A DNA stretch of 64,000 nt, from positions 14,950 through 78,949 of the IMG/VR virus record IMGVR_UViG_3300022751_000001. The stretch is one strand, 5' to 3'. The stretch comes from a virus (Duplodnaviria; Heunggongvirae; Uroviricota; Caudoviricetes). The notes beneath the pieces are model-generated. The model saw only the letters and a list, made by a program, of their open reading frames with translations, did no database searches and was not told the DNA's origin. Positions 22,734 through 59,237 of this stretch are shown one piece after another. Position numbers and translations under genes: made by a program. Numbering within the stretch: position 1 is the first letter of the stretch; each line of letters starts with the position of its first letter.

Positions 22734-22764
22734 CTATGAAAAGCATATTAACTCGGAGAATACA

Positions 22765-36906: not shown

Positions 36907-36928
36907 CATAAATAGGAAAACATTCAAT

Positions 36929-40146: not shown

Positions 40147-40221
40147 TGGCACTCGCGCTAGGACTCGAACCTAGATTGCTGGAGCCAAAATCCAGTGTCC
40201 TACCAGTTAGACGACATGAGT
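40147..40221 (-). tRNA. tRNA-Gln(UUG)
   Basis: cloverleaf on the reverse complement; anticodon stem CTGGA/TCCAG, loop TTTTGGC; GTTCGAGTC T-loop; CCA encoded. Confidence 0.7.
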
Positions 40222-40226
40222 ATACT

Positions 40227-40302
40227 TGGGGTAAAAGATGAGAATTGAACTCACATTATCGGCACCACAAGCCGACGTTCTAACCATTGAACTACTTTCA
40301 CC
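40227..40302 (-). tRNA. tRNA-His(GUG)
   Basis: extra 5' G(-1), anticodon loop TTGTGGT, discriminator C, CCA encoded. Confidence 0.7.
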
Positions 40303-40307
40303 ACGCT

Positions 40308-40371
40308 TGGCTCCGCACACGGGTTGCAACGCCTTGGTGCAAACGTTATACACTTCAGACACGTGTACGGA
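40308..40371 (-). pseudogene. 64-nt CCA-terminated tRNA-like element (degenerate tRNA?)
   Basis: 7-bp acceptor-like helix TCCGTAC/GTGCGGA, discriminator G, CCA; too short for a cloverleaf; contains GTTGCAAC...CCCGTG as in the elements at 40907 and 43165. Confidence 0.3.
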
Positions 40372-40374
40372 GTT

Positions 40375-40458
40375 TGGCGGAAGATTGGATAATCGAAAAC
40401 CATGCTTTCACACTCATCGCTTAGCGGGCGAGACCTGATCCTATCAGGTTAATCTTCC
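40375..40458 (-). tRNA. tRNA-Ser(GCU)-like, atypical D-arm (possible pseudogene)
   Basis: perfect acceptor GGAAGAT/ATCTTCC, discriminator G, CCA, T-loop TTCGATT, anticodon loop CCGCTAA with C33, long variable arm; D region is a 7-bp hairpin with a 3-nt loop. Confidence 0.4.
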
Positions 40459-40461
40459 ATG

Positions 40462-40547
<86 letters not shown>

Positions 40548-40553
40548 TAATTG

Positions 40554-40641
40554 TGGTCGGTCTAGCTAGATTTGAACTAGCACGAGGTTTTAATCTCCGC
40601 AGGGTTTAAGCCTGCTATGTCTACCGTTTCATCATAGACCG
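40554..40641 (-). tRNA. tRNA-Leu(UAA)
   Basis: type-II; anticodon stem GCAGG/CCTGC, loop CTTAAAC; CCA. Confidence 0.75.
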
Positions 40642-40646
40642 TAATT

Positions 40647-40732
40647 TGGTACCGAAGGTGGGACTCGAACCCACAACGCTTTTCAGCACTGGTTCCTAAG
40701 ACCAGCGTGTCTACCAATTCCACCACTTCGGC
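40647..40732 (-). tRNA. tRNA-Leu(UAG)
   Basis: type-II; 5' GCCGAAGTGGTGGAATTGGTAGACAC; anticodon loop CTTAGGA; CCA. Confidence 0.75.
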
Positions 40733-40737
40733 ATATT

Positions 40738-40822
40738 TGGTGTGCTTACTCAGACTTGAACTGAGATGAGATTAACTCGGTAGCTTTTGAAACTACTGCG
40801 TATACCGTTCCGCCATAAGCAC
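40738..40822 (-). tRNA. tRNA-Leu(CAA)
   Basis: type-II; anticodon loop TTCAAAA; T-arm CTCAG-TTCAAGT-CTGAG; CCA. Confidence 0.7.
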
Positions 40823-40827
40823 ATATT

Positions 40828-40901
40828 TGGAGAAACGTATCAGATTCGCACTGATGTAAACGGGTTTGCAATCCGCTGCGTAGCTGCTCCGCCAACGCTT
40901 C
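40828..40901 (-). tRNA. tRNA-Cys(GCA)
   Basis: anticodon arm GCGGATTGCAAACCCGT (cf. E. coli Cys GCGGATTGCAAATCCGT); discriminator U; CCA. Confidence 0.7.
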
Positions 40902-40906
40902 ATATT

Positions 40907-41022
40907 TGGCACCCCCGCAAACCTTTAGGGTGAGCTAACAAATGCTTTTTATAACTAGTATGTTGCACTTGCTTGCCTGCGTATCTACTCAGGTAATTAA
41001 GCTGAGCACTACAAACGGGGGT
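40907..41022 (-). ncRNA. 116-nt CCA-terminated tRNA-like element (function unknown)
   Basis: perfect 7-bp terminal helix ACCCCCG/CGGGGGT, discriminator G, CCA, enclosing ~100 nt of AT-rich sequence without a canonical T-loop; 3' region ...CCTAAAGG...CGGGGGTGCCA resembles the element at 43165. Confidence 0.3.
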
Positions 41023-41027
41023 ATATT

Positions 41028-41098
41028 TGGTGAAGTAGGACGGAATCGAACCATCGCCTTTTGATTTACAGTCAATCGGGTGCCCTGCACGCTACAAC
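41028..41098 (-). pseudogene. tRNA-Tyr(GUA)-like, probably degenerate
   Basis: anticodon loop CTGTAAA and T-arm GATGG-TTCGATT-CCGTC are good, but the acceptor has two T-T mismatches, the D-arm is tiny and the variable arm is short for Tyr. Confidence 0.3.
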
Positions 41099-41103
41099 AT
41101 ATT

Positions 41104-41180
41104 TGGTGGTTTCGGTCTGAATTGAACAGACGACCCCCTGTTCTTCAAACAGGTGCTCTAACCAACTGAGCTACAAAACC
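41104..41180 (-). tRNA. tRNA-Phe(GAA)
   Basis: GCTCAGTTGGTTAGAGC D-arm; anticodon loop TTGAAGA; CCA. Confidence 0.75.
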
Positions 41181-41193
41181 AAAAGTTACTTGT

Positions 41194-41274
41194 TCGGGGA
41201 GCCAGGAGTTGAACCTGGGCATCGGGTCTATATTACTCTGCAGCCCGCAGCACTAACGTTATGCTTACTCCCCG
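41194..41274 (-). pseudogene. atypical tRNA-like gene: no encoded CCA, 15-17-nt anticodon loop
   Basis: perfect acceptor CGGGGAG/CTCCCCG and T-arm CCAGG-TTCAACT-CCTGG, but the anticodon stem CGGG/CCCG encloses CTGCAGAGTAATATAGA; 3' end is ...A-ACA instead of CCA. Confidence 0.3.
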
Positions 41275-41277
41275 TTA

Positions 41278-41352
41278 TGGTCAGTCCAGTAGGGTTCGAA
41301 CCTACGGTCTCATGCTCCCAAAGCACGCGTGATACCACTTCACTATAGACTG
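41278..41352 (-). tRNA. tRNA-Pro(UGG)
   Basis: anticodon loop TTTGGGA; T-arm GTAGG-TTCGAAC-CCTAC; CCA. Confidence 0.7.
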
Positions 41353-41355
41353 ATT

Positions 41356-41430
41356 TGGCTCTAGATATTGGAATCGAACCAATCGCCTTCTCCTTAACAG
41401 GGAGCTGCCCTACCGATGGGCCGATCTAGA
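41356..41430 (-). tRNA. tRNA-Asn(GUU)
   Basis: perfect acceptor TCTAGAT/ATCTAGA; anticodon loop CTGTTAA; CCA. Confidence 0.7.
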
Positions 41431-41437
41431 ATATATT

Positions 41438-41512
41438 TGGCGCGACCAGCGAGAATTGAACTCGCGACTATACCGTGACAGGGTACTGTGATAACCACTT
41501 CACCATGATCGC
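41438..41512 (-). tRNA. tRNA-Asp(GUC)
   Basis: anticodon loop CTGTCAC; T-loop TCAATTC; CCA. Confidence 0.7.
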
Positions 41513-41517
41513 ATATT

Positions 41518-41600
41518 TGGCACACGTACACAGATTCGAACTGCTTAGCTTTCGCACTGGTTTTGGAGACCAGTTCCCATCGCCACTAGGGAGTACATGT
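41518..41600 (-). tRNA. tRNA-Trp(CCA) with 11-nt variable region
   Basis: acceptor ACATGTA/TACGTGT (one G-U); anticodon stem CTGGT/ACCAG, loop CTCCAAA; extra GCGAAAGC mini-hairpin in the variable region; 83 nt. Confidence 0.5.
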
Positions 41601-41985
41601 ATATTGGGTGCTGGGTTTTGTTGATTTGTGCCCAGCGTCCCGACTAGCGATATGCAATTGCATAAAGCTATCAAATCGGTCAGACCTTTCATCGGTAGTC
41701 TGAATGAGCCTTATACTTGAGACTCGCTTATCTTTCTCAAGCAGGGTGCGCTAAACGCTCCAAGGGTCGGCAGACCCGTCGTACAACCATTCATTTCGGG
41801 GGAGGGGAGTGTATGCCCCAGCTTAATCTATCGCTCTTTGCAATAGACCCCCTGATGTAACTCGACCGCTGCGCTACCCATCACGGTTTACAGTACCTAC
41901 CAGCTTTGGGAGCTGGGGTGTTAGGGTCACTTACAGCCCTATCTGCTGACTACCGTGCCAAAGCCTCGTCCGTCGGTTAATTTGT

Positions 41986-42019
41986 TAAAAAAAGACACCT
42001 ACTTGTGGGTAGATGTCTC
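41986..42019 (-). terminator. rho-independent terminator (minus strand) inside the tRNA region
   Basis: minus-strand GAGACATCTACC-cacaa-GTAGGTGTC then TTTTTTT. Confidence 0.45.
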
Positions 42020-42140
42020 TCGTTGTTTGTTTTCAAAATTCTTCTTATGAAGAGAACGACAAGACACCTACACTAAATTGATCCGGGCAATTTGACCAGA
42101 GCTGTGATAGTAGTGAGTGACTATATAATGTCTTCATAAT
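42020..42140 (-). ncRNA. candidate small RNA (~130 nt) bounded by promoter and terminator
   Basis: minus-strand promoter ttgtat-18-tgg-tataat (plus 42144-42173) upstream and the 41986-42019 terminator downstream; longest ORF inside is 21 codons. Confidence 0.3.
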
Positions 42141-42143
42141 TTC

Positions 42144-42173
42144 ATTATACCATAATAATAAATGGCAATACAA
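42144..42173 (-). promoter_or_regulatory. putative promoter with extended -10 (minus strand)
   Basis: reverse complement ttgtattgccatttattattatggtataat. Confidence 0.35.
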
Positions 42174-42188
42174 TCTTTTTTATAAATT

Positions 42189-42263
42189 TGGTCACCCATG
42201 GGAGAGTTGAACTCCCGTTGCATGATTGAAAATCATGTGTCCTAACCGTTAGACGAATGGGCG
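42189..42263 (-). tRNA. tRNA-Glu(UUC)
   Basis: anticodon stem CATGA/TCATG, loop TTTTCAA; T-arm GGGAG-TTCAACT-CTCCC; CCA. Confidence 0.7.
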
Positions 42264-42268
42264 ATATG

Positions 42269-42345
42269 TGGTGAAACCGATAGGGATCGAACCTATGACA
42301 CCCTGATTAAGAGTCAGGTGCTCTAACCAGCTGAGCTACGGTTCC
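42269..42345 (-). tRNA. tRNA-Lys(CUU)
   Basis: GCTCAGCTGGTTAGAGC D-arm; anticodon loop CTCTTAA; CCA. Confidence 0.7.
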
Positions 42346-42442
42346 ATATCTTGAAAAGGTGCTACGAGAAGTTTCGGCTCATACGTCCATGCAATTCCTG
42401 CCTGGTTTGACCTCGTAATCATACTTGCTACCAATATGTATT

Positions 42443-42518
42443 TGGTGGAGTTGCAGAGAATCGAACTCTGGTGAAGACGTTGCAAACGTCCCATAATAAA
42501 CCGTTATATGACAACCCC
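42443..42518 (-). tRNA. tRNA-Ala(UGC)
   Basis: acceptor GGGGTTG/CAACTCC; anticodon loop TTTGCAA; T-arm CAGAG-TTCGATT-CTCTG; CCA. Confidence 0.65.
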
Positions 42519-42526
42519 GAATTGTT

Positions 42527-42602
42527 TGGTAGTTCCCGCTGGACTTGAACCAGCACCAGCTTCGTTAGAACCGAAGTGCCCTATCCATTAGACCAGAGAA
42601 CC
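42527..42602 (-). tRNA. tRNA-Arg(UCU)
   Basis: anticodon stem CTTCG/CGAAG, loop GTTCTAA; T-loop TTCAAGT; CCA. Confidence 0.65.
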
Positions 42603-42830
42603 TTATATTTCTGCTTTGAGGTACTTATCGAGCAGATCATTGATTTGAGTAATGTGAACCATACCAGCTTGTTTCACAGCTATTTCACCAAAGTGTCTGC
42701 GCAGTACTACGAAACCTTGTTCGAGTGCTTGCGTTTCTTCTTCAATGATGTCGCGAGTTAGGTCATGCACTAGACTTTCAGCTTGTCGCTTGACTAAGTT
42801 TGGGTCTGGGTCTTTGCGGTATGCTTCCAT
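42603..42830 (-). CDS. hypothetical protein nested inside the tRNA array
   Basis: 75 aa from the internal ATG (MEAYRKDPDPNLVKRQAESLVHDL...); the longer ORF start would overlap tRNA-Gly; stop abuts the 5' end of tRNA-Arg. Confidence 0.4.
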   Translation of the reverse strand: MEAYRKDPDPNLVKRQAESLVHDLTRDIIEEETQALEQGFVVLRRHFGEIAVKQAGMVHITQINDLLDKYLKAEI

Positions 42831-42846
42831 ACTCTTATTATACGTA

Positions 42847-42921
42847 TGGTGCGGGTACACAGAATCGAACTGTGATCCCCTGATTGGAAGTCAGGTATAT
42901 TAGCCGTTATACTATACCCGC
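42847..42921 (-). tRNA. tRNA-Gly(UCC)
   Basis: perfect acceptor GCGGGTA/TACCCGC; anticodon loop CTTCCAA; T-arm CACAG-TTCGATT-CTGTG; CCA. Confidence 0.7.
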
Positions 42922-42927
42922 AAATGT

Positions 42928-43005
42928 TGGAGCCCCTCACGGAGTCGAACCGTTCCTCGTACCTACCACGGTACGCGTGCTAACCAACGTTACACTAACT
43001 GGGGC
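42928..43005 (-). pseudogene. tRNA-Thr(GGU)-like with irregular anticodon loop and acceptor (possible pseudogene)
   Basis: anticodon region CGTAC-CGTGGTAG-GTACG allows only a 6- or 8-nt loop around GGT; T-loop TTCGACT present; acceptor pairing imperfect; CCA position ambiguous. Confidence 0.3.
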
Positions 43006-43008
43006 GTA

Positions 43009-43082
43009 TGGGGCCGCCACTCGGTACTGCCCCGAGGTCGATAGTTTACAAAACTACTACTCTACTTTTGAGCTATGGCGGC
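43009..43082 (-). tRNA. tRNA-Thr(UGU) with non-canonical T-loop
   Basis: perfect acceptor GCCGCCA/TGGCGGC, discriminator C, CCA; anticodon loop TTTGTAA; T-arm TCGGG-GCAGTAC-CCGAG lacks the T54-psi55-C56 consensus. Confidence 0.5.
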
Positions 43083-43085
43083 ACT

Positions 43086-43161
43086 TGGTAGTCCCAGAAG
43101 GAATTGCACCCTCGACACCTTGTTCCGAAGACAAGTGCTCTATCTGCTGAGCTATAGGACT
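43086..43161 (-). tRNA. tRNA-Arg(UCG)
   Basis: acceptor AGTCCTA/TGGGACT; D-arm GCTCAGCAGATAGAGC; anticodon loop CTTCGGA; CCA. Confidence 0.6.
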
Positions 43162-43164
43162 TTA

Positions 43165-43268
43165 TGGTGCACGGGGGCAGCTTTAGGCTACCTCTATTCT
43201 AATAACGCTTCAGTGCACCTCTACGCTTTCGATTCTCGAGCCACGTTGCAACGATGTGCTCTCCGTAC
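43165..43268 (-). ncRNA. 104-nt CCA-terminated tRNA-like element (function unknown)
   Basis: terminal helix GTACGGA/CCCGTGC, discriminator A, CCA; no T-loop; interior contains CGTTGCAACG and ...GCCTAAAGCTGCCCCCGTGCACCA, echoing the elements at 40308 and 40907. Confidence 0.3.
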
Positions 43269-43273
43269 AAATT

Positions 43274-43358
43274 TGGTTGCGGGGACGGGATTCGAACCCG
43301 TGTATCTTGCGACAAAGGGATATGAGCCCTCCGAGAATGACCGCTTCTCAACCCCGCT
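43274..43358 (-). tRNA. type-II (long variable arm) tRNA with CAU anticodon and A1-A72 mismatch
   Basis: acceptor AGCGGGG/CCCCGCA with A1 opposite A72; 3-bp D-stem GAG/CTC; anticodon stem GAGGG/CCCTT, loop CTCATAT (anticodon CAU); variable arm TGTC-GCAA-GATA hairpin; T-arm ACGGG-TTCGAAT-CCCGT; CCA. Confidence 0.55.
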
Positions 43359-43363
43359 ATATA

Positions 43364-43439
43364 TGGTCGTCTCTGTAGGACTCGAACCTACAACCTTCTG
43401 TGTGTAAAACAGATGCTCTAGCCATTGAGCTAAGAGACG
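43364..43439 (-). tRNA. tRNA-Val(UAC)
   Basis: acceptor CGTCTCT/AGAGACG; D-arm GCTCAATGGCTAGAGC; anticodon loop TTTACAC; CCA. Confidence 0.7.
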
Positions 43440-43451
43440 ATAATTTGTTAA

Positions 43452-43525
43452 TGGTCGGTGTAGGTGGTTCTGCCCCACCGTATGCAGAATATAAGTCTGC
43501 TGTTCTACTATTGAACTATACACCA
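43452..43525 (-). tRNA. tRNA with UAU anticodon (Ile-UAU?) and non-canonical T-loop
   Basis: acceptor TGGTGTA/TACACCG; D-arm GTTCAATAGTAGAAC; anticodon stem GCAGA/TCTGC, loop CTTATAT; T-arm GGTGG-GGCAGAA-CCACC lacks the TTC consensus; CCA. Confidence 0.45.
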
Positions 43526-43532
43526 GAATACT

Positions 43533-43609
43533 TGGTTGGACGAGTAGGATTTGAACCTACGATCTCCTGAATATCAGTCAAGTGCTTTAACCAGCTAAGC
43601 TACCGTCCA
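43533..43609 (-). tRNA. tRNA-Ile(GAU)
   Basis: acceptor TGGACGG/TCGTCCA; anticodon stem CTTGA/TCAGG, loop CTGATAT; T-arm GTAGG-TTCAAAT-CCTAC; CCA. Confidence 0.6.
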
Positions 43610-43616
43610 TTATTTG

Positions 43617-43691
43617 TGGTGGGCTCGGTTGGAATCGAACCAACGTGGTACAGATTAAAAGTCTGCTGCTCAACCACTGAGCCACGAACCC
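43617..43691 (-). tRNA. tRNA-Lys(UUU)
   Basis: acceptor GGGTTCG/CGAGCCC; D-arm GCTCAGTGGTTGAGC; anticodon loop CTTTTAA; T-arm GTTGG-TTCGATT-CCAAC; CCA. Confidence 0.7.
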
Positions 43692-44076: not shown

Positions 44077-44304
44077 GTGTATAGTAGTCGGTATAAAACT
44101 ATGACAAAATACTCAATATATGAAGTTGGCGAAAAAGCTAACAAAAATCGCGACTCATTAGACTTCGAAAAATGGTTAGAACGCACCCTCAAATATATAA
44201 CTGAAAAGATCGACCCAGCGTTCAACCGAGAAAAATTTGCAGAATGGTTAGAAGAAGACGACGAAAAACCATTTATTTCTGGTAAAAATAGGTATTATTG
44301 GTAG
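44077..44304 (+). CDS. hypothetical protein
   Basis: 75 aa; first gene of a plus-strand block. Confidence 0.45.
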   Translation: MYSSRYKTMTKYSIYEVGEKANKNRDSLDFEKWLERTLKYITEKIDPAFNREKFAEWLEEDDEKPFISGKNRYYW

Positions 44305-44336
44305 CAACGCCCGTAAATTCCTGCTATAATAAGGAT

Positions 44337-44768
44337 ATGAAAGATATTCAGAACGAAGCAGAAACAGGTGTACAAACCATCACAAACCTGCAGATGACAC
44401 TCGCGCAAATCGAGAACGAACTGCAAACCAACCCTAAGTTCATTGAGTTCCTACGCGTCCAGGACGAGCTTAACGCAAAGCGTTCAGAGTTCGACTCGAC
44501 AATGAAAGACTTGATGATTGAGCGGTTCAAAGACACAGGTGAAAAGAAGCTCGAAGTTGGTAACGCAACATTCGCGCTAACACCACGTGAAGAACTGATA
44601 ATCACAGACGAAGACAAAGTTGACGATGCCTTCGTTACTAAAGTAACCGTAAAAAAGCTAGATAAAGAGGCAGTGAAAGCTGTTCAAGTTCTTGAAGGTC
44701 GCCTCGTTGACGGAGTCGGTGTTCGACAATCGTTCGCATACAAACTAACCATTAAGGATAACGAATAA
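44337..44768 (+). CDS. Gp157-like protein (siphovirus Gp157 family)
   Basis: internal ATG preceded by aaggat; coiled-coil N-terminus; sits immediately upstream of a RecT-family gene as Gp157 proteins typically do. Confidence 0.4.
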   Translation: MKDIQNEAETGVQTITNLQMTLAQIENELQTNPKFIEFLRVQDELNAKRSEFDSTMKDLMIERFKDTGEKKLEVGNATFALTPREELIITDEDKVDDAFVTKVTVKKLDKEAVKAVQVLEGRLVDGVGVRQSFAYKLTIKDNE

Positions 44769-44769
44769 A

Positions 44770-45444
44770 ATGGCAGTAAATCTACAAGCACTAAAAGAAA
44801 AGCTCATCGAGAGCAACCAAGACGCGAACAAGGTTAACAAGACTATCGCATACCTAAGTGGTACAAAGGTCAACCAAATCGTGCAGAAGCACACTAACCA
44901 AGAGATGTACTCACTCATTGTTAAGTACCTGAACGTCGGTACGAACCTAGATGGTGTAAACGTCATCTTGTCTGGTCAGAACATGGGTCTTGTAACGTAC
45001 CAAGGGTATATGAACAAGGTGAAGCAACTACACCCAGACGTATTCTTTGACGTGCAACTCGTACGCGAAGGTGACACATTTGAAGTTGGTAAGCGTTCTG
45101 GTCTTGTTGAATACAAGCACGAAATCGCTAACCCGTTTGCAAGCTATGACGACAAGAAGATCAACGGTGCGTACTGTGTCGTGAAGTTCGACAACAACGA
45201 GTCAATCGAGCTATTGAACGAACGCGACTACCTTGAAATGAAGGGTGCCTCAAAGAGCAGTTACACTTGGGACAAATGGCCATCAGAGTTTTGGCGAAAG
45301 TCTGTTATTAAGCGGGCATGTAAGGTATACTTTTCAGAAGAAGTCGCTTTGCTCGAAAAGGTTGATAACGAAGACCACGGCCTAGCTGATGACGATACTA
45401 GCACTGACGCACTCGACGCAATCGTAGCTGCAAAGAAAGGGTAA
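44770..45444 (+). CDS. recT: RecT-family single-strand annealing protein
   Basis: QLVREGDTFEVGKRSG (cf. RecT VVREGDEFSFEFG) and WPSEFWRKSVIKRACKVYF (cf. RecT W.EMAKKTAIRRLFKYLP). Confidence 0.6.
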   Translation: MAVNLQALKEKLIESNQDANKVNKTIAYLSGTKVNQIVQKHTNQEMYSLIVKYLNVGTNLDGVNVILSGQNMGLVTYQGYMNKVKQLHPDVFFDVQLVREGDTFEVGKRSGLVEYKHEIANPFASYDDKKINGAYCVVKFDNNESIELLNERDYLEMKGASKSSYTWDKWPSEFWRKSVIKRACKVYFSEEVALLEKVDNEDHGLADDDTSTDALDAIVAAKKG

Positions 45445-46155: not shown

Positions 46156-46432
46156 GAACCGAATACTAGGTCACCTGCGAATTTTTCAAAGCGTTCAAGC
46201 TGACTTGAATATGGCTAACCGTTGGGACAAGCAAAGCTACGAGTATGAAGGCACCGACCCGTTTAATCTAGAAGATGACGCGTTCCCAGTCACAGTGGGG
46301 TTGATTGAGATATACGCAGGTCGCAAGCAAGTTGAGGTTGTTGATGAATTGCTTGAAACACTCAGCCGACCAGACACCCGTAAGGTGCTACTACAAATCA
46401 AAAAGAGACTGGAAGACCAACTACCAAAATGA
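46148..46432 (+). CDS. hypothetical protein
   Basis: 94 aa. Confidence 0.45.
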   Translation: MSKNRILGHLRIFQSVQADLNMANRWDKQSYEYEGTDPFNLEDDAFPVTVGLIEIYAGRKQVEVVDELLETLSRPDTRKVLLQIKKRLEDQLPK

Positions 46433-46989
46433 TTACCTACCACGACAAAATCGAACAGAACACGCCTGAATGGTTCGCTATTCGTGAAGACCACCCGCTT
46501 ACAGGGTCGACTTCGTATGAATTTCTACTAGCCCGTAACCCAGCAACGTATAAGCTCAAAGAGAGCAACTTCACTGGTAACAAGTATACGGAGCGTGGTC
46601 ATACGTTAGAGCCTGTAGCAAGGACGCTCCTGGACCGCGTGTACGACATCAAAACGCTCGAGACGGGTTTCGTTACCAATAGCGACTTCCCGTGGGCAGG
46701 ATGCTCTCCAGACGGGTACACAGACGAGTATATGGTTGAGATCAAATGCTTTATGAAAGAACGACACTTATTGAACGCTGTGACGACTGACGCGAAGATT
46801 TTATCCCAAGTGCAGTGGAATATGATGATTATGGGCAAAACCAAAGCGTTGCTCGTCTTCTTCTGTCCTGATAACACGCTCGACCCGTCTGAACAGCTTA
46901 TAATTAAAGAAATAGAAGCGAACCCGCACATCTGGGCTAATATGAAGAATAGGATCGAAGTTTATGGCGCAGCAAGAGCTAATACTTGA
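46429..46989 (+). CDS. YqaJ-like viral recombinase exonuclease (PD-(D/E)xK)
   Basis: QNTPEWFAIREDHPLTGSTSYEFL (YqaJ N-terminal signature), later GHTLEP and EIKC (D/E...K motif). Confidence 0.7.
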   Translation: MITYHDKIEQNTPEWFAIREDHPLTGSTSYEFLLARNPATYKLKESNFTGNKYTERGHTLEPVARTLLDRVYDIKTLETGFVTNSDFPWAGCSPDGYTDEYMVEIKCFMKERHLLNAVTTDAKILSQVQWNMMIMGKTKALLVFFCPDNTLDPSEQLIIKEIEANPHIWANMKNRIEVYGAARANT

Positions 46990-47527: not shown

Positions 47528-48106
47528 ATGAAAGAAACTCTCAAAGCACTCGCTGAAGAAATTCAAGGTATGTCATTACGCTACAAACTGCAAACAGTAG
47601 CACGTCCTAAAACATGGTCACGCATTCACAAGTTTCGTCGTCAACGTATCTCACGAGGGTACAGCGACAAAGATATGTGGAATAGCGGTACTCACCTAAT
47701 GACGCTCATCTCAGAGAGCTTGAAGTGGCACGAATCAAAAGGTGTCAGCGACTTCGAGTATATGTTCAAGATGTGGGTAGACGAAGGCAGTAACTTCGGT
47801 TACAAGAGTCTCAAGCAGGTCTACACCGATATTGATAAATACTTAGCGGTTGATCGCGGTGACTGGGCGACTGGTCTTGCGGGTCAAATCGTAAACCTTG
47901 AAGACGCGTATATCGCAGAGGGTGAAGCAGAAGACACCTCAAGTATTAGTGTTGAATGGCGCGAAGAGAAGACTGGTAAAAAACTCACCGAAGCTCGCGT
48001 ACAAAAGCTAATGCACGAACACCACGCAAAGGTTGAAAAGCTACACGCGAAAGCTGTGAACGCTCTAACTTTCTGGGCTCATCACGCTCGACAGTTCTGG
48101 GACTAA
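47528..48106 (+). CDS. hypothetical protein
   Basis: 192 aa. Confidence 0.45.
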   Translation: MKETLKALAEEIQGMSLRYKLQTVARPKTWSRIHKFRRQRISRGYSDKDMWNSGTHLMTLISESLKWHESKGVSDFEYMFKMWVDEGSNFGYKSLKQVYTDIDKYLAVDRGDWATGLAGQIVNLEDAYIAEGEAEDTSSISVEWREEKTGKKLTEARVQKLMHEHHAKVEKLHAKAVNALTFWAHHARQFWD

Positions 48107-48107: not shown

Positions 48108-48254
48108 ATGACCGAACGCGAATACGTTTACGAAGTAGGTTTAACCCCTGACGACAAAGCACGCTTGCAACGTATGCTAGGTGTTAGTACACTTAGTCTT
48201 GAAGATTATGAACACGCTAAAAACGTGATTAACGATATAGAGGTTGAAGAGTGA
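48108..48254 (+). CDS. hypothetical small protein
   Basis: 48 aa (MTEREYVYEVGLTPDDKARLQRMLGVSTLSLEDYEHAKNVINDIEVEE); GTGA overlap with the next gene. Confidence 0.3.
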   Translation: MTEREYVYEVGLTPDDKARLQRMLGVSTLSLEDYEHAKNVINDIEVEE

Positions 48255-48868
48255 AAGTTTTAGCAGTCGGTGACACTCACCAAAAGCAGTGGATTTTAGA
48301 CAAGGTTGAAAAAATCGCTGGTAACTACGACAAAGTAGTTCTTTTAGGTGACTACCTCGACAACTGGGGTTCTAGCGGGTTCGACCGACTTGATATGATT
48401 CTGCGGGTGCAACGATTAGTGCAAACTAACCCGAACGTCATCGCGCTATGCGGTAACCACGACCTATGCTATTTCAACAAGAAGTACAGCGGTATGTATT
48501 CAGGGTGGGACGCTCACGCACAAATGATGTTTGACGCTGAACCGCAACTCACTGACTTTATGCGAAAGCTACCAGAAACCTACGAGATTGACGGGGTTAC
48601 CTACTCGCACGCTGGTCTGACTGATGACTGGACACCAAACCGTCACCCACTCGCAGATGATGGGCACATGTGGGTACGACCAGGGCAAGGCTACGTCTAC
48701 AAACCAAACCAAGTGTTCGGTCACACCCCAAGCAAGACTTGCTGGGAAGTACAACAAAACGTATGGTGTGTTGACACATTCTCGCAATACCCAGACCTTA
48801 CCCACTTTGGTGACTGTTCTGTGCTTGAAATCGTAGACGGTAAGACGTACACTGTTACTCAGTTATGA
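48251..48868 (+). CDS. calcineurin-like metallophosphatase (lambda-PPase-like Ser/Thr phosphatase)
   Basis: GTG start; VLAVGDTHQK (GDxHG), VLLGDYLDNWG (GDxxDRG-like), CGNHD (GNHE). Confidence 0.7.
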   Translation: MKVLAVGDTHQKQWILDKVEKIAGNYDKVVLLGDYLDNWGSSGFDRLDMILRVQRLVQTNPNVIALCGNHDLCYFNKKYSGMYSGWDAHAQMMFDAEPQLTDFMRKLPETYEIDGVTYSHAGLTDDWTPNRHPLADDGHMWVRPGQGYVYKPNQVFGHTPSKTCWEVQQNVWCVDTFSQYPDLTHFGDCSVLEIVDGKTYTVTQL

Positions 48869-49620
48869 GAATCTTAATCACTGGTTCTGAAGGGTTTATC
48901 GGTCGTCACGTTGTAGCGACCGCTCGCAATCGAGGGCACACGGTTGTTTGTGTTGACCACTTGCTAGAAAATGCTCGCTATATTAACCAGTATGACGTTG
49001 ATAGTTTTGACGCGGTCATTCACTTAGCGGCATATATTGATATTGGTCAATCTTTCAAAGACCCTTGGCTATATGTTTCGAACAACCTGTTGCAAATGCA
49101 AACGCTCGAGAATGCACGACGCGTCGTATTCGCTTCTAGCGCGGCTGTATACGGTAAGTTCTCACCCTACGGTTACACAAAGCGTCTCGGTGAATCACTG
49201 CTACCGAAGAACAGTATCTCGCTACGTCTATTTAACCCGTTCGGGCCTGGCGAAAACCACAAACCAGAGAACCACATTGTACCGCTACTCGCAGGTAACT
49301 CAAATGAGGGCAACGTAACCACTCTTTACCACGATGGTGAGCAGATTCGTGACTTTATTCACGTTAGTGATGTTGCTCTCGCTTTTGTGATGGCTGCAGA
49401 ATCTGATGCGACTGGTGCGTACGACCTTTGTAGCACACCGCTGTCTATCAAGAAAGTTGCTGAGCTTATGAAAGTACCGTTTGAATTGTCTAAAAGGTCT
49501 CGCGACGCTGGTGATACTATGAGCTTAGTTGGTGACCCGTTACCACTTGAAAAAGCAATCGGGTTCACACCTCAAAAAGATGTCAAAGAAATGCTAAAAA
49601 ACTGGCGATATTGGTATTGA
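48865..49620 (+). CDS. NAD-dependent epimerase/dehydratase-family protein (short form)
   Basis: MRILITGSEGFIGRHV Rossmann motif; catalytic YGYTKRLGE (YxxxK); 251 aa, shorter than typical UDP-sugar epimerases. Confidence 0.65.
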   Translation: MRILITGSEGFIGRHVVATARNRGHTVVCVDHLLENARYINQYDVDSFDAVIHLAAYIDIGQSFKDPWLYVSNNLLQMQTLENARRVVFASSAAVYGKFSPYGYTKRLGESLLPKNSISLRLFNPFGPGENHKPENHIVPLLAGNSNEGNVTTLYHDGEQIRDFIHVSDVALAFVMAAESDATGAYDLCSTPLSIKKVAELMKVPFELSKRSRDAGDTMSLVGDPLPLEKAIGFTPQKDVKEMLKNWRYWY

Positions 49621-49669: not shown

Positions 49670-49876
49670 ATGTATAAAGCAAAAACAAAGTTCAAGAGCA
49701 AATCACATAACGCACGAGTGGTCAAAGAGGGCGAGCTGTTCGAGCTAGAAGCAATCTACCACAACAATTATGATATTGGTCGTTCAAAGGTAGAACTAAA
49801 CTCCGCAGACCGACCATTCTTTCTATCAATCACTCACGACGAGTTCAACGAATTTTTCGAAGAAGTTGACTTGTAG
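49670..49876 (+). CDS. hypothetical protein
   Basis: 68 aa. Confidence 0.4.
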   Translation: MYKAKTKFKSKSHNARVVKEGELFELEAIYHNNYDIGRSKVELNSADRPFFLSITHDEFNEFFEEVDL

Positions 49877-49929
49877 CCGATTGATGTTCATACTTAGGTA
49901 TGAAAGAGATAAAACATAAAAGGATCAAC

Positions 49930-50862
49930 ATGAAAAAACCTATTCTACGTATGATGGTTGGTCTCCCTGGCTCAGGTAAAAGCACCGCAGCTAGTGAGCT
50001 GACAGACAACAGTACCCCAGATGAAACTTGGGTGCAGGTTGAGAAAGACCTTATTCGCAAAGACAGCAAGCTCTTTGAGGGCGGTGAGTACAACCACAAG
50101 CGCGGTGACGAAGCTATCGTTATTCGAGAGCGCAACCGTCTTATTCGTGACGCACTACGAGCTGGTAACAGCGTAGTCGTTTCAGACACAAACCTCGACC
50201 CTAAGCACCGTGGGCAACTGCGAATGTTGGCTACCGAAACCGACGTAGATTTCGAAGTCGATGACAGCTTCTTAGATGTACCAGTTGACGAATGTATTAA
50301 GCGCGACGAAGACCGTGAAAAGAGTATCGGTAAAGACGTTATCTTAGATATGTATTACAAATACGTTCACCCAGGCTTTCACCAACGTCGTTCTGACTGG
50401 AAAGACAAGCTACCACGTGCGTTCTTGTGCGACATTGACGGTACACTGGCTCACAACCTCACTGGGCGTAGCTGGTACGACCTCGAGCAAGTTAAGAATG
50501 ACACACCGAACTACGCACTAACACACATCTTTGACGCGATTGACCTGTTTCGTGATGACTTTTCTCGCAAGCACACGAAGTACACACACATCATTCTCTT
50601 GAGCGGTCGCAAAGAGGGGGCTCGAGCGGCTACAGAAGCGTGGTTAGACCAATGGTCAATACCGTATGATGAACTCATTATGCGCGCAGACAACGATGAC
50701 CGACAAGACTCTATCACAAAGAAAGAGCTGTACGAGCAACACATTAAAGACAAGTACAATGTTCTAGCTGTATTTGACGACCGACCACAGGTAGTTGATA
50801 TGTGGCGACGTGAGCTTGGCTTGATGGTATTTCAGGCTGCAGATCACGACTTGAAGTTTTAA
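49930..50862 (+). CDS. pnk: polynucleotide 5'-kinase/3'-phosphatase (T4 Pnk-like)
   Basis: P-loop MVGLPGSGKST; VSDTNLDPKHR (T4 ISDTNLNPERR); HAD phosphatase motifs FLCDIDGTLAH, ILLSGRKEG, VFDDRPQVVDMWRRELG (T4 IDDRTQVVEMWRRIG); start may be 49900. Confidence 0.8.
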   Translation: MKKPILRMMVGLPGSGKSTAASELTDNSTPDETWVQVEKDLIRKDSKLFEGGEYNHKRGDEAIVIRERNRLIRDALRAGNSVVVSDTNLDPKHRGQLRMLATETDVDFEVDDSFLDVPVDECIKRDEDREKSIGKDVILDMYYKYVHPGFHQRRSDWKDKLPRAFLCDIDGTLAHNLTGRSWYDLEQVKNDTPNYALTHIFDAIDLFRDDFSRKHTKYTHIILLSGRKEGARAATEAWLDQWSIPYDELIMRADNDDRQDSITKKELYEQHIKDKYNVLAVFDDRPQVVDMWRRELGLMVFQAADHDLKF

Positions 50863-51559: not shown

Positions 51560-51946
51560 ATGGCAGACTTAAATACCGTCACCATCACAGGGCGTCTTAC
51601 AAAAGACCCAGAACTAAAATCAACAACAACAGGCAAGAACGTCGTAAGTTTCTCTGTAGCAGTAAATGGTTACAAAGAAGGCGACACTAGCTTTATCGAC
51701 GTTACCGCGTGGGAAAAGACTGCCGAACTAGTTGCTAATCACTTCAGCAAGGGTTCACGAATCCTACTGCAAGGTCAACTACAGCAACGAACATGGGACA
51801 AAGATGGTCAAAAGCACAGTAAGATCGAGATTAACGCTCGTGAAATCGTGTTCATCGACCCAAAGAAGCAAGATAGTGGGAGCCAAGACGTAGTCATTGA
51901 CGACATCGAAGACAAGCCTATCGACCTATCTGCGATCCCTTTCTAA
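51560..51946 (+). CDS. ssb: single-stranded DNA-binding protein
   Basis: RBS aaggaataaa; OB-fold-like MADLNTVTITGRLTKDPELK...; C-terminal acidic tail ending DLSAIPF (cf. SSB DDDIPF). Confidence 0.75.
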   Translation: MADLNTVTITGRLTKDPELKSTTTGKNVVSFSVAVNGYKEGDTSFIDVTAWEKTAELVANHFSKGSRILLQGQLQQRTWDKDGQKHSKIEINAREIVFIDPKKQDSGSQDVVIDDIEDKPIDLSAIPF

Positions 51947-54217: not shown

Positions 54218-54670
54218 TTACAGAATCGTTTTGTTTGTGTAGAAATCTTTTAAGTAAGGTATCTGTTCACGGATCGCTCTAATAGACAAACCCCCAAGCT
54301 CACGCTCAAGCGGCTTAACCCTCGGGTGACGTAGTGACTTCTCGACTAGCAATGAATACTGGTCGATACCATCGAGAACATCTAGGTTTCGTGGTAGTTC
54401 ACGCGCAACAAATTGAATGGTATGCAATGACGGTACAGGTACCGCCATTGTTTCTTTGTGTATCAAATTATGGGCTGCTACACCAAGTCGGTGAGCAATC
54501 ATACTCGGGTTCTCGCGAATCTCTAACGAAGCAGGGTGACCTTCCCAGAAACCTCTAGTGTGCGCAGTGTGGTGCTCGTTAAATCGTATCATTCCCGTCA
54601 TACTCCTTACCATCATAATACGCTTTTCCGTCTCTGAATAGAATATGATCGACTTGATATTGTCCGTCAC
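54218..54670 (-). CDS. hypothetical protein (start uncertain)
   Basis: 150-aa ORF overlapping the upstream gene by up to 92 nt; internal ATGs would cut the overlap to about 14 nt. Confidence 0.45.
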   Translation of the reverse strand: MTDNIKSIIFYSETEKRIMMVRSMTGMIRFNEHHTAHTRGFWEGHPASLEIRENPSMIAHRLGVAAHNLIHKETMAVPVPSLHTIQFVARELPRNLDVLDGIDQYSLLVEKSLRHPRVKPLERELGGLSIRAIREQIPYLKDFYTNKTIL

Positions 54671-55610
54671 CGTAGTCGCGAACGTGTGTCATTCCTTGTT
54701 GCCAGTTCTCTTGATATGCTACAGGGAGATTATGGTCATCTACTGCGCTGTGAAAGCCTGGAACCTCTCCAGTGGTGCGGCAGAGTGCACCTGCAACGTA
54801 TGCACCGAGTACTTTACCACGTCGGTCTGTGCGGTGGAATGACTCTGCTCTGTGAGCGTGACCTTGCATAACGTTTCGGTCTGGATTTTCTTTAGATAGT
54901 TTTTGTGCAGTAGAACCTGAAGCTGAAGACATAGTACCGTGCATAAATGCGAAGTCGTCAGCGTACTCGAATGCGGCTGCACCGTAACCACCGACCCAAT
55001 CAACACCTACGTGCTGTAGGTTTGCGAGATAAGGGTATGTCATTACTGGGTATTCGTCGCTAGAACCAGCTTGTCGCACCCCGTACATCTGCGGCATATT
55101 CTTGAGCGTGTAGTTCTTCAAGCGCACGTTGTGGTTTGAGTCTACCTCTGTAATCTTAGCTCGTGGGTTGTCAGAGCGAAGACCTGCGTAGAAGTCGTGG
55201 ATTCGTTGCAGCGAAGGTCCCAAAGTCCTGTGGAAGTGGTCTGAATCGGGGTTGAATCGAGATAAAGCCGCGAAGTCGACTGAGTCGCCAAGGTTAACGA
55301 TATGGTCTGGTTGTAGGTCGCGACAGATGTAGCGTGCAAGTTTCATCGCTCGTTCGTCGTGAATAGGTAGAAGCTCACCGCTATCTAACCGTCGATAATC
55401 AATCTGACTATCTCCCATCGCTACGATTGATGTGTATGGTCGGTCAACGCTTTTGCGACGACTTGGGGTAATGCGAGCTGCGACTGCTGGTGAAAATGGT
55501 TCACGGTCTTCTATGTACTCATACGACTGCAGGGTTGTGTGATCCCATTCGTTCGTTTCGCGGTTAAATGCCGCTGATTCCCATTCTTTTGATAGTCGCT
55601 TCTCGCTCAT
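54579..55610 (-). CDS. calcineurin-like metallophosphoesterase
   Basis: VAMGDSQID (GDxH), NLGDSVD (GDxxD), NHN (GNH), QGHAHRAE (GHxH). Confidence 0.7.
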   Translation of the reverse strand: MSEKRLSKEWESAAFNRETNEWDHTTLQSYEYIEDREPFSPAVAARITPSRRKSVDRPYTSIVAMGDSQIDYRRLDSGELLPIHDERAMKLARYICRDLQPDHIVNLGDSVDFAALSRFNPDSDHFHRTLGPSLQRIHDFYAGLRSDNPRAKITEVDSNHNVRLKNYTLKNMPQMYGVRQAGSSDEYPVMTYPYLANLQHVGVDWVGGYGAAAFEYADDFAFMHGTMSSASGSTAQKLSKENPDRNVMQGHAHRAESFHRTDRRGKVLGAYVAGALCRTTGEVPGFHSAVDDHNLPVAYQENWQQGMTHVRDYGDGQYQVDHILFRDGKAYYDGKEYDGNDTI

Positions 55611-56182: not shown

Positions 56183-56956
56183 TTAGAATAGCCCTTGTAC
56201 GAACTTCAGAATACCACCGATAAGACCTGTATCTTCTTCTGGCGCTGGGGCTGGAGTAGGATTTGTGGTGTTATTTGTAGTCGTGTTGTTCGTAGTTGAG
56301 TTGTTTGTTACAGGTGCAGAGGTCGTATTTCGAGAGGTATTGTTATTCGTTGTGCTTGGAGCTGGGGTTGTTGCACCCGCTGATTCAAGCTGGCGAATCT
56401 TTTCTTCGAGAGCCTCTACTTGTTGTCGCACAGTTGCAGGGTCAAGTGATGCTTCTTCGACTGTAAATGTAACAGTTCGGTTTCGCTCACAGTGATCTCG
56501 CCATAGAATTACGTCAGTGTAACATACGTCGAAGTTGAGGTAACAGTCGCGTGGTAGGCCATCGAATTGCGTTACGTCAGGGATAACGATTGCGTTATCT
56601 CGAGGTGGGTTCACCCCGTTAGGTCGGGTCGCAGGGATCGAGTCGAGCTGGATTTCACGTGCGTCACGCCCACCAGTTGCTTCACAGATAATAGTACGAA
56701 TACTTGTACCTGTAGCGTTAATCAGCTTAGTCGACTGACTTTGGAAGACAAGTGTGTCACCTGGATTAAATACAGGCTTGTCACCGTTATAGTTTTTAAC
56801 ATCTGTAATCTCTATTTTCCAGTCAACCAAAACATCAATCGGTTTGTTCATCAGATAGATGAAGCCCCCAAGAATGATTAAGATAAATGATAGGTTAATT
56901 AGTACAAGGGGACGGTGTGTGACCCAAGCCCACCAGCCGATTAGTTTTAGTTTCAT
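56183..56956 (-). CDS. membrane-anchored protein with Thr/Asn-rich low-complexity tail
   Basis: N-terminal signal anchor (LVLINLSFILIILGGFIYL); C-terminal PAPSTTNNNTSRNTTSAPVTNNSTTNNTTTNNTTNPTPAPAP. Confidence 0.45.
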   Translation of the reverse strand: MKLKLIGWWAWVTHRPLVLINLSFILIILGGFIYLMNKPIDVLVDWKIEITDVKNYNGDKPVFNPGDTLVFQSQSTKLINATGTSIRTIICEATGGRDAREIQLDSIPATRPNGVNPPRDNAIVIPDVTQFDGLPRDCYLNFDVCYTDVILWRDHCERNRTVTFTVEEASLDPATVRQQVEALEEKIRQLESAGATTPAPSTTNNNTSRNTTSAPVTNNSTTNNTTTNNTTNPTPAPAPEEDTGLIGGILKFVQGLF

Positions 56957-58514: not shown

Positions 58515-59237
58515 TTAGAACGCACCACCAAGCAGATGAGGTGGCACACCTTTTGGTATATCTTCTGTGTATTCAAGGTCAAAGCGGTTCAAGAAGTCTT
58601 TGCGATTATTTCTCGCTTCGGGCACTATACTTTTTATAGCTTCATCGTCAAACTCTGAGTGAGCGAACGTCTCGAGCTTTTCACGAATCATTTCGTCACC
58701 ACCTAAACTCGAAAGGTGCCAACCGATTGCGTTACTCTTTGGCCATTGTGCGTACCAGCGAGCGTTAGAAGCCCCACCGACATCTTCATAGTCTTCGATA
58801 CGACCAATAACAGGTTGGTGGTCGGGTTGCCACTTCAGTACACCGCGCCAGTCTGCGTAAAAGTTGCGGTAATCGGTCAGTAGCGTGGTAGGTTTACCCC
58901 CTGCGGCTAGAATAGCAGCTGGGTGCGGTATCTCGTCACCGTCAGAAACGATATAGATTGCGTCAGGGTAGAGCTTATTAGCTTCAATAAGCACGCTGTC
59001 ACGCAACCACATCTCAGATTCCCACGGGTCTAACCCTTCAGGTATCGTAACAATCACGTCAATGACGTTTGGTAGGTCGAGTTTACGAACTTCGCGGGGT
59101 TTACCACGAAAAGTGTTGGTCGCTTGAACTGCAACGTGTTTGTCTACGGTGTTACCAAGAGTCGCGAGTCGTATTTTAACCGCATCGTATTCGTAACTCC
59201 ACATAAAAGCGTCAATTATCACAGTTCTATTCCCCAT
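58515..59237 (-). CDS. putative glycosyltransferase (DxD)
   Basis: IYIVSDGDEIP (DxD); 240 aa; overlaps the upstream GT gene by 19 nt. Confidence 0.45.
   Translation of the reverse strand: MGNRTVIIDAFMWSYEYDAVKIRLATLGNTVDKHVAVQATNTFRGKPREVRKLDLPNVIDVIVTIPEGLDPWESEMWLRDSVLIEANKLYPDAIYIVSDGDEIPHPAAILAAGGKPTTLLTDYRNFYADWRGVLKWQPDHQPVIGRIEDYEDVGGASNARWYAQWPKSNAIGWHLSSLGGDEMIREKLETFAHSEFDDEAIKSIVPEARNNRKDFLNRFDLEYTEDIPKGVPPHLLGGAF

Follow-up and report, generated by a model that had tools for sequence, protein, structure and literature searches.

A T4-type polynucleotide kinase/phosphatase retained under constraint at a phage locus that lacks its RNA ligase

The 64,000-nucleotide stretch analyzed here (hereafter the window; positions 14,950 to 78,949 of IMG/VR record IMGVR_UViG_3300022751_000001, a virus of the Caudoviricetes) encodes on its plus strand, at 49930..50862, a T4-type polynucleotide 5'-kinase/3'-phosphatase (pnk; 310 amino acids (aa), stop included), as judged from Pfam, PHROG and PDB comparisons. 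Enzymes of this type (T4-type Pnkp) convert 5'-OH into 5'-phosphate ends and remove 3'-phosphate and 2',3'-cyclic phosphate groups, and Pnk has long been read as the 'healing' half of heal-and-seal tRNA repair. We find that the gene itself is an ordinary member of its family, and that what is new is its setting: it is uncoupled from a ligase and yet is core to its locus and constrained. Indeed, near-identical pnk genes (99% at the amino acid level) with and without a ligase at one and the same slot constitute a natural experiment, in which ligase-less alleles persist over deep divergence and one lineage appears to keep the kinase active site only. The explanation which we favor as a whole, with a probability of roughly 0.55, combines an intact Pnk, a ligase-less allele of the locus and a ligase-independent remodeling of RNA ends. 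This makes a role of phage Pnk apart from ligase testable, be it in RNA turnover, DNA-end processing or the erasure of damage signals, and bears on the trade-off between tRNA arrays (replacement) and repair enzymes as counter-defences.

The pnk product is predicted to be catalytically intact

The longest open reading frame (ORF) comprising pnk extends over 49900..50862 (plus strand, 320 aa) and has a second in-frame ATG at 49930, from which the 310-aa form starts; the latter is the form found in the public ENA and Logan gene calls, and two public contigs (ENA, Logan) are 100% identical to the window across the pnk region. The Pfam scan of the product evidences an AAA_33 P-loop kinase domain at residues 7-132 (6.4e-18) and a HAD_PNKP domain at residues 162-307 (5.9e-41), while PHROG 505 'polynucleotide kinase' matches it end to end (2e-81) and the top PDB matches, both full-length, are Pnkp1 (4xrp, 5.7e-33) and T4 Pnk (1ltq, 2.6e-27). 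The kinase domain (49948..50325, plus strand) precedes the HAD (DxDxT) 3'-phosphatase domain (50413..50850, plus strand) within a single chain of about 300 aa that contains no further domain. The motifs GLPGSGKS (the P-loop, residues 11-18), SDTNLDPKHR, DIDGT (residues 168-172), SGR and DDRPQVVDMWRR are all present and align with those of T4.

Active site conservation was analyzed by mapping the HMMER alignment onto T4 numbering. All seven kinase residues are kept, with K17, S18, D40, R43, E61, D86 and R129 of the window Pnk corresponding to T4 K15, S16, D35, R38, E57, D85 and R126. The same is true for the ten phosphatase residues (T4 D165, D167, T169, R176, S211, R213, D254, K258, D277 and D278), the set in the window being D168, D170, T172, R180, S225, R227, D260, K264, D283 and D284, where D168 and D170 are the equivalents of T4 D165 and D167. 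Among these, R176, R213 and D254 are reportedly functional in T4, according to earlier mutagenesis by the Shuman laboratory. The remaining assignments rest on published lists of functional residues, which include D35, R38, E57, D85 and R126 for the T4 kinase (PMC2831316) and D165, D167, S211, K258 and D277/D278 for the phosphatase (PMC3592404). An initial annotation, made by eye, had described a Pnk-like ORF with kinase and HAD phosphatase domains, and in this it agrees with Pfam, PHROG, PDB and 17 of 17 residues; assignment to a P-loop kinase family other than Pnk and loss of the catalytic Asp of DIDGT, the two outcomes named there as speaking against it, were both checked and neither holds. 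Since both are ruled out, the ORF is, by its sequence, a Pnkp: it displays every defining feature of the T4-type family that sequence can test, and its residues predict a catalytically intact enzyme.

No RNA ligase is detected in the genome

An 84,070-bp contig (k141_1923624, ENA ERZ27228458) whose ends overlap by 141 bp shows the genome to be circular, with a length of about 83.9 kb, and a separate calculation from an IMG/VR relative comes to about 83.7 kb; about 20 kb thus lie outside the 64-kb window. Within the window, Pfam analysis of essentially all ORFs of at least 150 aa returned no Rnl1, Rnl2, RtcB, DNA-ligase or 2H family, no ligase emerged when the unannotated ORFs were compared with PHROGs, and a regular expression for KxDG run over all ORFs of at least 50 aa gave three chance matches only. 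The unannotated window ORFs are also devoid of nucleotidyltransferase and HxT/S motif sets, and seven reference ligases used as queries in six-frame tblastn gave no match to the window or to the out-of-window regions of its relatives. Moreover, no methyltransferase such as Hen1 and no ligase family occurs among the scanned ORFs. The absence of a ligase from the window, as first noted by eye, is therefore borne out by Pfam, PHROG, KxDG, motif and tblastn scans alike.

The suggestion that a ligase may lie outside the window appears unlikely. In an identical genome (L015), 5.8 kb of this region could be read; they encode tail proteins, and none of the families recorded there is that of a ligase. 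The remaining ~14 kb, read in relatives at 72-92% nucleotide identity, including the closest relative that has the same locus variant as the window (L011/L019), are equally without ligase. The out-of-window content of these relatives comprises a portal, a 761-aa protein, a MoxR-type AAA ATPase, a 400-aa DUF2201_N-type protein (possible metallopeptidase) and small ORFs, with no unexplained large ORF. As far as these data reach, the absence of ligase genes from the ~84-kb genome is real. Candidates for a cryptic ligase were considered and rejected: the ORF at 54579-55610 is a metallophosphoesterase (PHROG 20266), and those at 25759-26907, 56183-56956, 23587-24333 and 47528-48106, among others, have no motif I/IV/V or 2H signatures.

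A further suggestion, the use of RtcB from the host, does not agree with the chemistry. The ends that RtcB ligates, 3'-phosphate or 2',3'-cyclic phosphate to 5'-OH, are the very ends that Pnk removes; host RtcB is no candidate because Pnk turns its substrates into ends that it cannot join. The use of, and requirement for, 5'-OH ends by RtcB has been described (PMC4787814).

The window carries a ligase-less allele of a ligase-pnk slot

A distinct picture emerged in related genomes. A strong ligase match by tblastn (E=3e-47) was obtained in the IMG/VR relatives L009/L010, directly upstream of their pnk. In L003/L004 a 303-aa ligase ORF (9071-9982) follows a conserved 68-aa ORF and is separated by 18 bp from pnk, the start of which is at 10001; the ligase product matches PF09414 RNA_ligase (1.5e-22), has EKLDGAN as motif I and has T4 Rnl2 as its sole PDB match. 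At the same slot L027 encodes a 301-aa PF09414 ligase. The ligase of the sister genomes is thus assigned, from its family match and motif, to the Rnl2 superfamily of RNA ligases.

At the corresponding position the window contains a ligase-deletion scar (49900..49929, plus strand), delimited by blastn, by alignment of the junctions and by a comparison of nine loci. Window positions 49880-49902, including the ATG at 49900, align with the upstream region and start codon of the ligase, and positions 49911-49929 with the region of the ligase stop codon and the ribosome-binding site of pnk, so that 908 bp of ligase ORF face only 8 bp (aaagagat, 49903-49910) in the window. The scar is common to the window, L005 and L006. 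In the latter two it forms a mini-ORF of 6 codons; in the window one A fewer in a run sets the relic ATG in frame with pnk, which creates a 10-codon extension and the 320-aa ORF mentioned above. Exact-pattern scans of IMG/VR and JGI metagenomes for this window-specific scar gave no match. The junction of L029 is unlike that of the window, L005 and L006, a difference which suggests at least two loss events. Judging from the alignments, the window carries the ligase-less allele of a presence/absence polymorphism set exactly at the boundaries of the ligase ORF, and it is because of this allele that the ligase is missing; of a two-gene cassette of ligase and pnk, only pnk survives in the window.

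The distribution of the two alleles was surveyed in eight lineages, for which intermediate relatives were taken from one large protein search, with 718 homologues listed, and their contigs inspected. Gene order is the same in all eight, RecT-YqaJ-metallophosphoesterase-[epimerase]-small ORF-[ligase]-pnk-SSB, where brackets denote genes that may be missing. Two of the eight lineages carry the ligase, namely L003/L004 (Pnk 99% identical to that of the window; epimerase absent) and L027 (85%; epimerase present), and six lack it: the window itself, L006 (95%) and L029 (88%), all with epimerase, and L005 (95%), L030 (68%) and L028 (57%), all without it. By comparison, pnk occurs in 8 of 8. Since all four combinations of epimerase and ligase are found, the two genes occupy independent presence/absence slots, and the 2 kb upstream of pnk may be described as a hotspot of cassette exchange.

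Comparison of the ligases from L003 and L027 (78% identical, dN/dS, the ratio of nonsynonymous to synonymous substitutions, of 0.033; their Pnks are 85% identical) indicates that they diverged in place, and hence that the ligase predates the split of the clade, of at least 85% Pnk identity, which holds the window. Because of this, and because outgroups pair a ligase with pnk, loss of the ligase in the window lineage is favored over gain. Conversely, pnk alone could be ancestral, with the ligase inserted as a moron in some lineages and the 'scar' being an ancestral mini-ORF or intergenic sequence. We regard such a history as possible but the less probable of the two: it accommodates the 6 of 8 lineages without ligase, among them the most divergent L030 and L028, as well as the 8 junction bp, which derive from neither end of the ligase ORF, but not easily the same-slot ligases under purifying selection that predate the clade split. 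In addition, the outgroups MW202692 and L007 have adjacent ligase and pnk genes, ligase (38-39%) and Pnk (40%) are about equally diverged from those of MW202692, and an ATG and a stop are retained in the ligase-less alleles at the exact start and end positions of the ligase ORF.

pnk is constrained where the ligase is absent

Selection on pnk was estimated as dN/dS by the Nei-Gojobori method, dS being saturated in the deeper comparisons. In all pairs with unsaturated dS (0.47-1.8) the ratio falls between 0.012 and 0.061, and this includes pairs in which both members are ligase-less: window-L005 (0.034), window-L006 (0.061), L005-L006 (0.028) and window-L029 (0.047). In fact, pnk has the lowest dN of the locus; in the window-L029 pair it amounts to 0.065, compared with 0.295 (metallophosphoesterase), 0.203 (epimerase) and 0.339 (68-aa ORF). 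The four closest pnk copies compared all encode 310 aa, with no indels or stops. Across the six ligase-less lineages pnk is intact (308-310 aa) and the seven kinase residues are kept in each; all catalytic residues are kept in four of the six, and L030 differs only by the conservative replacements S225T and D283E. By these measures pnk is strongly constrained without a phage ligase.

The sixth lineage, L028, shows a different behavior. Its Pnk (6001-6927 of scaffold_66, ENA ERZ23499817; the protein occurs on two contigs) keeps all kinase residues, but the phosphatase site is changed, with DIDGT replaced by DLDTA, SGR by SGT and FDDR by FEGS, together with R180V and D260E, so that the equivalents of T4 T169, R176, R213, D254, D277 and D278 are lost. 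In agreement, identity to the window Pnk is 66% in the kinase domain and 47% in the phosphatase domain. L028 therefore appears, from these replacements, to maintain the kinase only.

A proposed ligase-independent role and its alternatives

Taken together, a pnk that is core and constrained and a ligase that is optional argue for a role of pnk that does not depend on the ligase, and from this retention we infer that the gene probably has such a function in this phage. In the model that we favor, the kinase would phosphorylate the 5'-OH ends of RNAs cut by host or phage endoribonucleases, and the phosphatase would clear 3'-phosphate and 2',3'-cyclic phosphate ends of the same cleaved RNAs. Fragments that are 5'-phosphorylated would become substrates of 5'-monophosphate-dependent RNases, and those that are 3'-dephosphorylated substrates of 3'-OH-dependent exonucleases. 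An array of 22 tRNA genes present in the genome (see below) would replace damaged tRNAs rather than repairing them, whereas in genomes with the ligase allele the same Pnk would additionally support true tRNA repair. The decay mechanism is drawn by analogy with T4, whose PNK has a ligase-independent role in mRNA decay: RegB-cut transcripts are passed on to RNase G/E and PNPase in a process that draws on each of the two Pnk activities separately and on no ligase (PMC3014915). No RegB homologue was identified in the window phage, which confines the parallel to an analogy. The notion of tRNA arrays as replacement for cleaved tRNAs is found in PMC10264068 and PMC11555353.

Several observations weigh against this interpretation. 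The two most divergent lineages, L030 and L028, have no ligase, and a gain of the ligase in some lineages is possible. The gene trees conflict, as window pnk is nearest to that of the ligase-plus L003 while its scar matches L005/L006, a discrepancy that implies recombination at the locus. For L027 to L030 the local context covered amounts to 3-13 kb, and a ligase elsewhere in those genomes is possible; likewise, about 14 kb of the exact window genome are covered through relatives of 72-92% identity only. Phosphatase erosion is seen in one lineage only, and P0007, at similar distance, is intact. Finally, the setting of RecT, YqaJ exonuclease and SSB fits a role at DNA ends equally well.

A more far-reaching version, which we put forward tentatively, inverts the usual dependency for this siphophage group: Pnk, and ultimately just its 5'-kinase, would be the core function and the ligase an optional add-on, which allele exchange at a fixed slot adds or removes, within a 'replace and clear' counter-defence in which the tRNA array replaces cleaved tRNAs, in contrast to the 'heal and seal' of T4. 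The kinase would here license 5'-OH RNA (or single-stranded DNA) ends for 5'-phosphate-dependent nucleases; alternatively, it might erase 5'-OH and 2',3'-cyclic phosphate damage ends that are sensed or resealed by the host, for example by RtcB/RtcR-type systems.

The genomic setting raises the alternative of DNA end-healing, in which Pnk serves recombination-dependent replication or repair by RecT, YqaJ (lambda-exo-like) and SSB while the host NAD-dependent LigA seals nicks. Lambda exonuclease prefers 5'-phosphate ends, and Pnk might supply such ends to nucleases of this type and remove 3'-phosphate blocks. The block Gp157-RecT-YqaJ-...-pnk-...-SSB, syntenic in 8 of 8 lineages, is consistent with this, as is the lack of any detected DNA polymerase, helicase or primase of the phage, given which recombination might play a central part; DNA ends, like RNA ends, are substrates of T4-type Pnkp (PMC2831316). 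However, the optional partner in the slot belongs to an RNA-ligase family (PF09414, sole PDB match T4 Rnl2) and not to the DNA ligases, the nearest outgroup cassettes are RNA-centered (PTH2, RlaP, CCA-adding enzyme), and only single strands can enter the tunnel of the T4 kinase (PMC2831316), although single-stranded DNA tails would still fit. On balance a function at DNA ends seems rather unlikely.

Still less probable is that tRNA heal-and-seal simply continues, by means of a host ATP-dependent RNA ligase or a phage ligase of unrecognized fold. The Pnk is 99% identical to that of the ligase-plus sister and so has the same likely substrate, the family as a whole is linked to tRNA repair and tRNA arrays, and several window ORFs are still unannotated. 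Nevertheless, no ORF of at least 150 aa has a ligase family match or nucleotidyltransferase motifs, ends healed by Pnk are no substrate for RtcB, the common bacterial RNA ligase, and the repeated ligase loss together with the phosphatase erosion in L028 point to sealing being dispensable, the latter because sealing needs a 3'-OH. Lastly, a functionless remnant decaying after ligase loss, for which the missing canonical partner is the sole argument, is effectively refuted by the purifying selection on pnk, given a dN/dS of 0.03-0.06 between ligase-less genomes at dS values of up to about 0.7-1.4, the intact ORFs and the kinase residues kept in 6 of 6.

Comparison with known Pnk systems

The link of the Pnk family with tRNA repair and tRNA arrays, put forward in the initial annotation, is substantiated by the sister genomes and by the closest homologues examined, which pair pnk with an RNA ligase; in each of the annotated homologue groups inspected an RNA ligase lies within 4 kb of pnk. 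The paradigm is T4 Pnkp (pseT; 1ltq), which together with Rnl1 counters PrrC. It has the same domain order as the window Pnk and its essential residues are conserved there, identity to T-even Pnk being about 31%. The two-gene logic of T4 is found in the sister genomes L003/L004 and L027, albeit with an Rnl2-superfamily ligase (PF09414) in place of T4 Rnl1 (PF09511), whereas the window genome is without ligase. Accordingly, the latter falls outside the phage Pnkp + Rnl repair system, to which the sisters belong.

Among solved structures the best match is Pnkp1 of Capnocytophaga gingivalis (4xrp/4xru; Pnkp1-Rnl-Hen1), residues 4-303 against 11-307, with a phosphatase C-terminus very like that of the window Pnk; however, Pnkp1-Rnl-Hen1 is a bacterial operon, and no Hen1 or Rnl partner was detected in the phage genome. 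Pnkp of the Clostridium thermocellum type is different in that a metallophosphoesterase domain is fused to the kinase (plus a ligase-like domain), the phosphatase of the window protein being of HAD type instead; the metallophosphoesterase gene of the window lies about 1 kb (three genes) upstream of pnk, unfused.

Among phages, the Pnk of mycobacteriophages Omega/Cjw1 (Clusters J, E and L) is 36% identical full-length to that of the window. Mycobacteriophage Pnk and Rnl strictly co-occur (PMC3706429) and have been proposed, with phage tRNAs, to act against host defences (PMC3706429; PMC5511906); we had considered Omega/Cjw1 as a ligase-less precedent and dropped it, as PMC3706429 reports the opposite. 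In ChotaBhai Rnl is located about 0.3 kb downstream of pnk, unlike the uncoupled pnk of the window, and phiP4-3 also pairs a ligase with pnk. Streptomyces phage Elmer (Pnk 38% identical) encodes at least 28 tRNAs and a tmRNA in the 25 kb viewed; its pnk sits among the tRNA genes of the array and is preceded, at a distance of 0.65 kb, by an Rnl1-type ligase gene (PF09511), while in the window the array is separate and divergent. In a census of Pnk versus ligase per genus in GenBank phages, an apparent excess of orphan Pnks (Klebsiella, Mycobacterium) turned out on sampling to consist of phosphatase-domain-only proteins, and the census carries no quantitative weight.

The closest Pnks outside the phage group are those of the uncultured podovirus MW202692.1 (40% identical to the window Pnk), where they form an RlaP-Rnl-Pnk operon, and of L007 (IMGVR_UViG_3300012001_000008; 45%). 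The 'DNA ligase' of MW202692 is a PF09414 protein (5.8e-27) and the one most closely related to the ligase of the sister genomes (38-39% identical, E=3e-47). In L007 the region 4566-12064 encodes a metallophosphoesterase, a GT2 glycosyltransferase, an RNA ligase (PF09414), Pnk, PTH2, RlaP nucleotidyltransferase and a CCA-adding enzyme (PolyA_pol); no tRNA genes occur in the 18.5 kb examined. Both cassettes are complete RNA-repair modules, whereas the window keeps only Pnk and the metallophosphoesterase.

Genomic setting and tRNA array

The phage has a siphovirus-like genome of about 84 kb, as judged from its tape-measure protein, with a GC content of about 46%. Since megablast of the pnk locus against GenBank phages gave no match, it appears to have no cultured close relative. 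ARAGORN identifies 22 tRNA genes at 40147..43691 (minus strand), which cover 18 amino acids (all but Thr and Tyr) and include Lys(UUU) and Lys(CUU). The array had been described as lying next to pnk; it is real, but the adjacency is loose, as 6.2 kb and about 14 genes separate the two, which are on opposite strands in adjacent divergent gene blocks. The tRNA set and order are the same in the ligase-plus L003/L004 and the ligase-minus L006, and the array does not co-vary with the ligase.

On the same strand as pnk runs a block made of Gp157-like (44298-44768), RecT (44770-45444) and YqaJ-type exonuclease (46429-46989) genes, all plus-strand and assigned from Pfam records on the identical Logan/ENA contigs, followed by the metallophosphoesterase, the epimerase, the 68-aa ORF, pnk, small ORFs, SSB and a CHAP protein. 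The metallophosphoesterase is of the lambda-phosphatase/NinI-like type (48251..48868, plus strand; PF00149; PHROG 246, 2.1e-10) and is found upstream of pnk in every lineage examined, as well as upstream of ligase-pnk in L007. The epimerase is a nucleotide-sugar epimerase of the SDR family (48865..49620, plus strand; PF01370/PF16363; PHROG 540, 7.5e-42), and SSB (51560..51946, plus strand; PF00436) is the equivalent of L001 10864-11250.

The conserved 68-aa ORF (49670..49876, plus strand) is present in the window, L003, L005, L027, L028, L029 and L030 and gave no family match in a Pfam search. It starts with MYKAKTKFKSKSHNARVV, adjoins the ligase slot upstream in all lineages of the phage group and has a dN/dS of 0.06-0.29; its product might be functionally tied to the ligase-pnk cassette. 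A promoter-like site (TTGACT-17-CATACT, 9 of 12 positions, a consensus match only) is located at 49866..49894 (plus strand), upstream of the ligase/pnk start, and is conserved in the window, L003, L005 and L006.

Other features of the genome

Sugar-transfer genes are unusually many and comprise a TET-associated glycosyltransferase (TAGT, 2.3e-32), GT2/GT7C-like, Stealth CR2 and GT1 proteins and the epimerase, as well as weak GT17 and GT2 matches. Those on the minus strand are at 28842-29756, 17221-18528, 18525-19244, 19241-19900, 57281-58426, 58515-59237 and 59219-59791, and the epimerase (48865-49620) is on the plus strand. The set points to glycosylated hypermodified DNA, to glycosylation of the virion, or to both; no TET/JBP dioxygenase or cytosine methyltransferase was identified.

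Among ORFs of at least 150 aa in the window and in the relatives L010, L013, L016 and L019, none was assigned to a family of DNA polymerases, primases or replicative helicases. The only DNA-metabolism genes seen are RecT, the YqaJ exonuclease, SSB, a ParB-like gene (14927-15661), an RNase H-fold exonuclease (36872-37744), two HNH endonucleases and a weak FtsK-like ATPase (1886-2602). A 382-aa ORF (25759-26907, minus strand) overlaps the 3' end of a terminase-like ORF (26846-28252, minus strand; Terminase_3, weak, 1.8e-4) and has no Pfam or PHROG match; its N-terminal part, which contains TVNGWKNVTELNVGDEVLT, resembles by eye a Hint/intein-like or homing-endonuclease domain, and the ORF may represent a mobile element within or next to the terminase gene.

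Between 39930 and 64000 the window shows 100% identity to the ENA and Logan contigs. Five genes of the window, all preceded by good ribosome-binding sites (154-450, 437-721, 1886-2602, 3974-5632 and 28842-29756), are absent from the assembly index, either because the index is incomplete or because the left half of the window differs from the ENA genome, which would be a sign of mosaicism. Just left of the window start, L013 (5428-7522) encodes a MoxR-type AAA_5 ATPase (296 aa) followed by the 400-aa protein, whose match to DUF2201_N (putative metallopeptidase, 9.6e-4) is below the Pfam cut-off.

A 1289-aa protein (7023-10892, minus strand) contains eight stretches of collagen triple-helix repeats (3.2e-41) and is flanked by Gly/Ser/Thr-rich fibre-like proteins (3974-5632 and 5638-7008) and by an 842-aa tail protein resembling SPO1-like tail fibres of Bacillus. 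The endolysin (35135-36301, plus strand) combines Amidase_2 and G5 domains and has no match among GenBank phages. In a bacterial-genome scan its G5 part was 53-62% identical to Streptococcus oralis proteins, and the amidase part is weakly similar (about 30%) to proteins of Saccharibacteria, other candidate phyla radiation bacteria and Ktedonobacteraceae, matches which hint at an oral or Gram-positive-like host. Finally, the window encodes a LemA-family protein (22717-23346, plus strand, 8.1e-25) and an SPFH/Band 7 protein (31587-32420, plus strand, 2.2e-24), both membrane-associated and uncommon in phage genomes.

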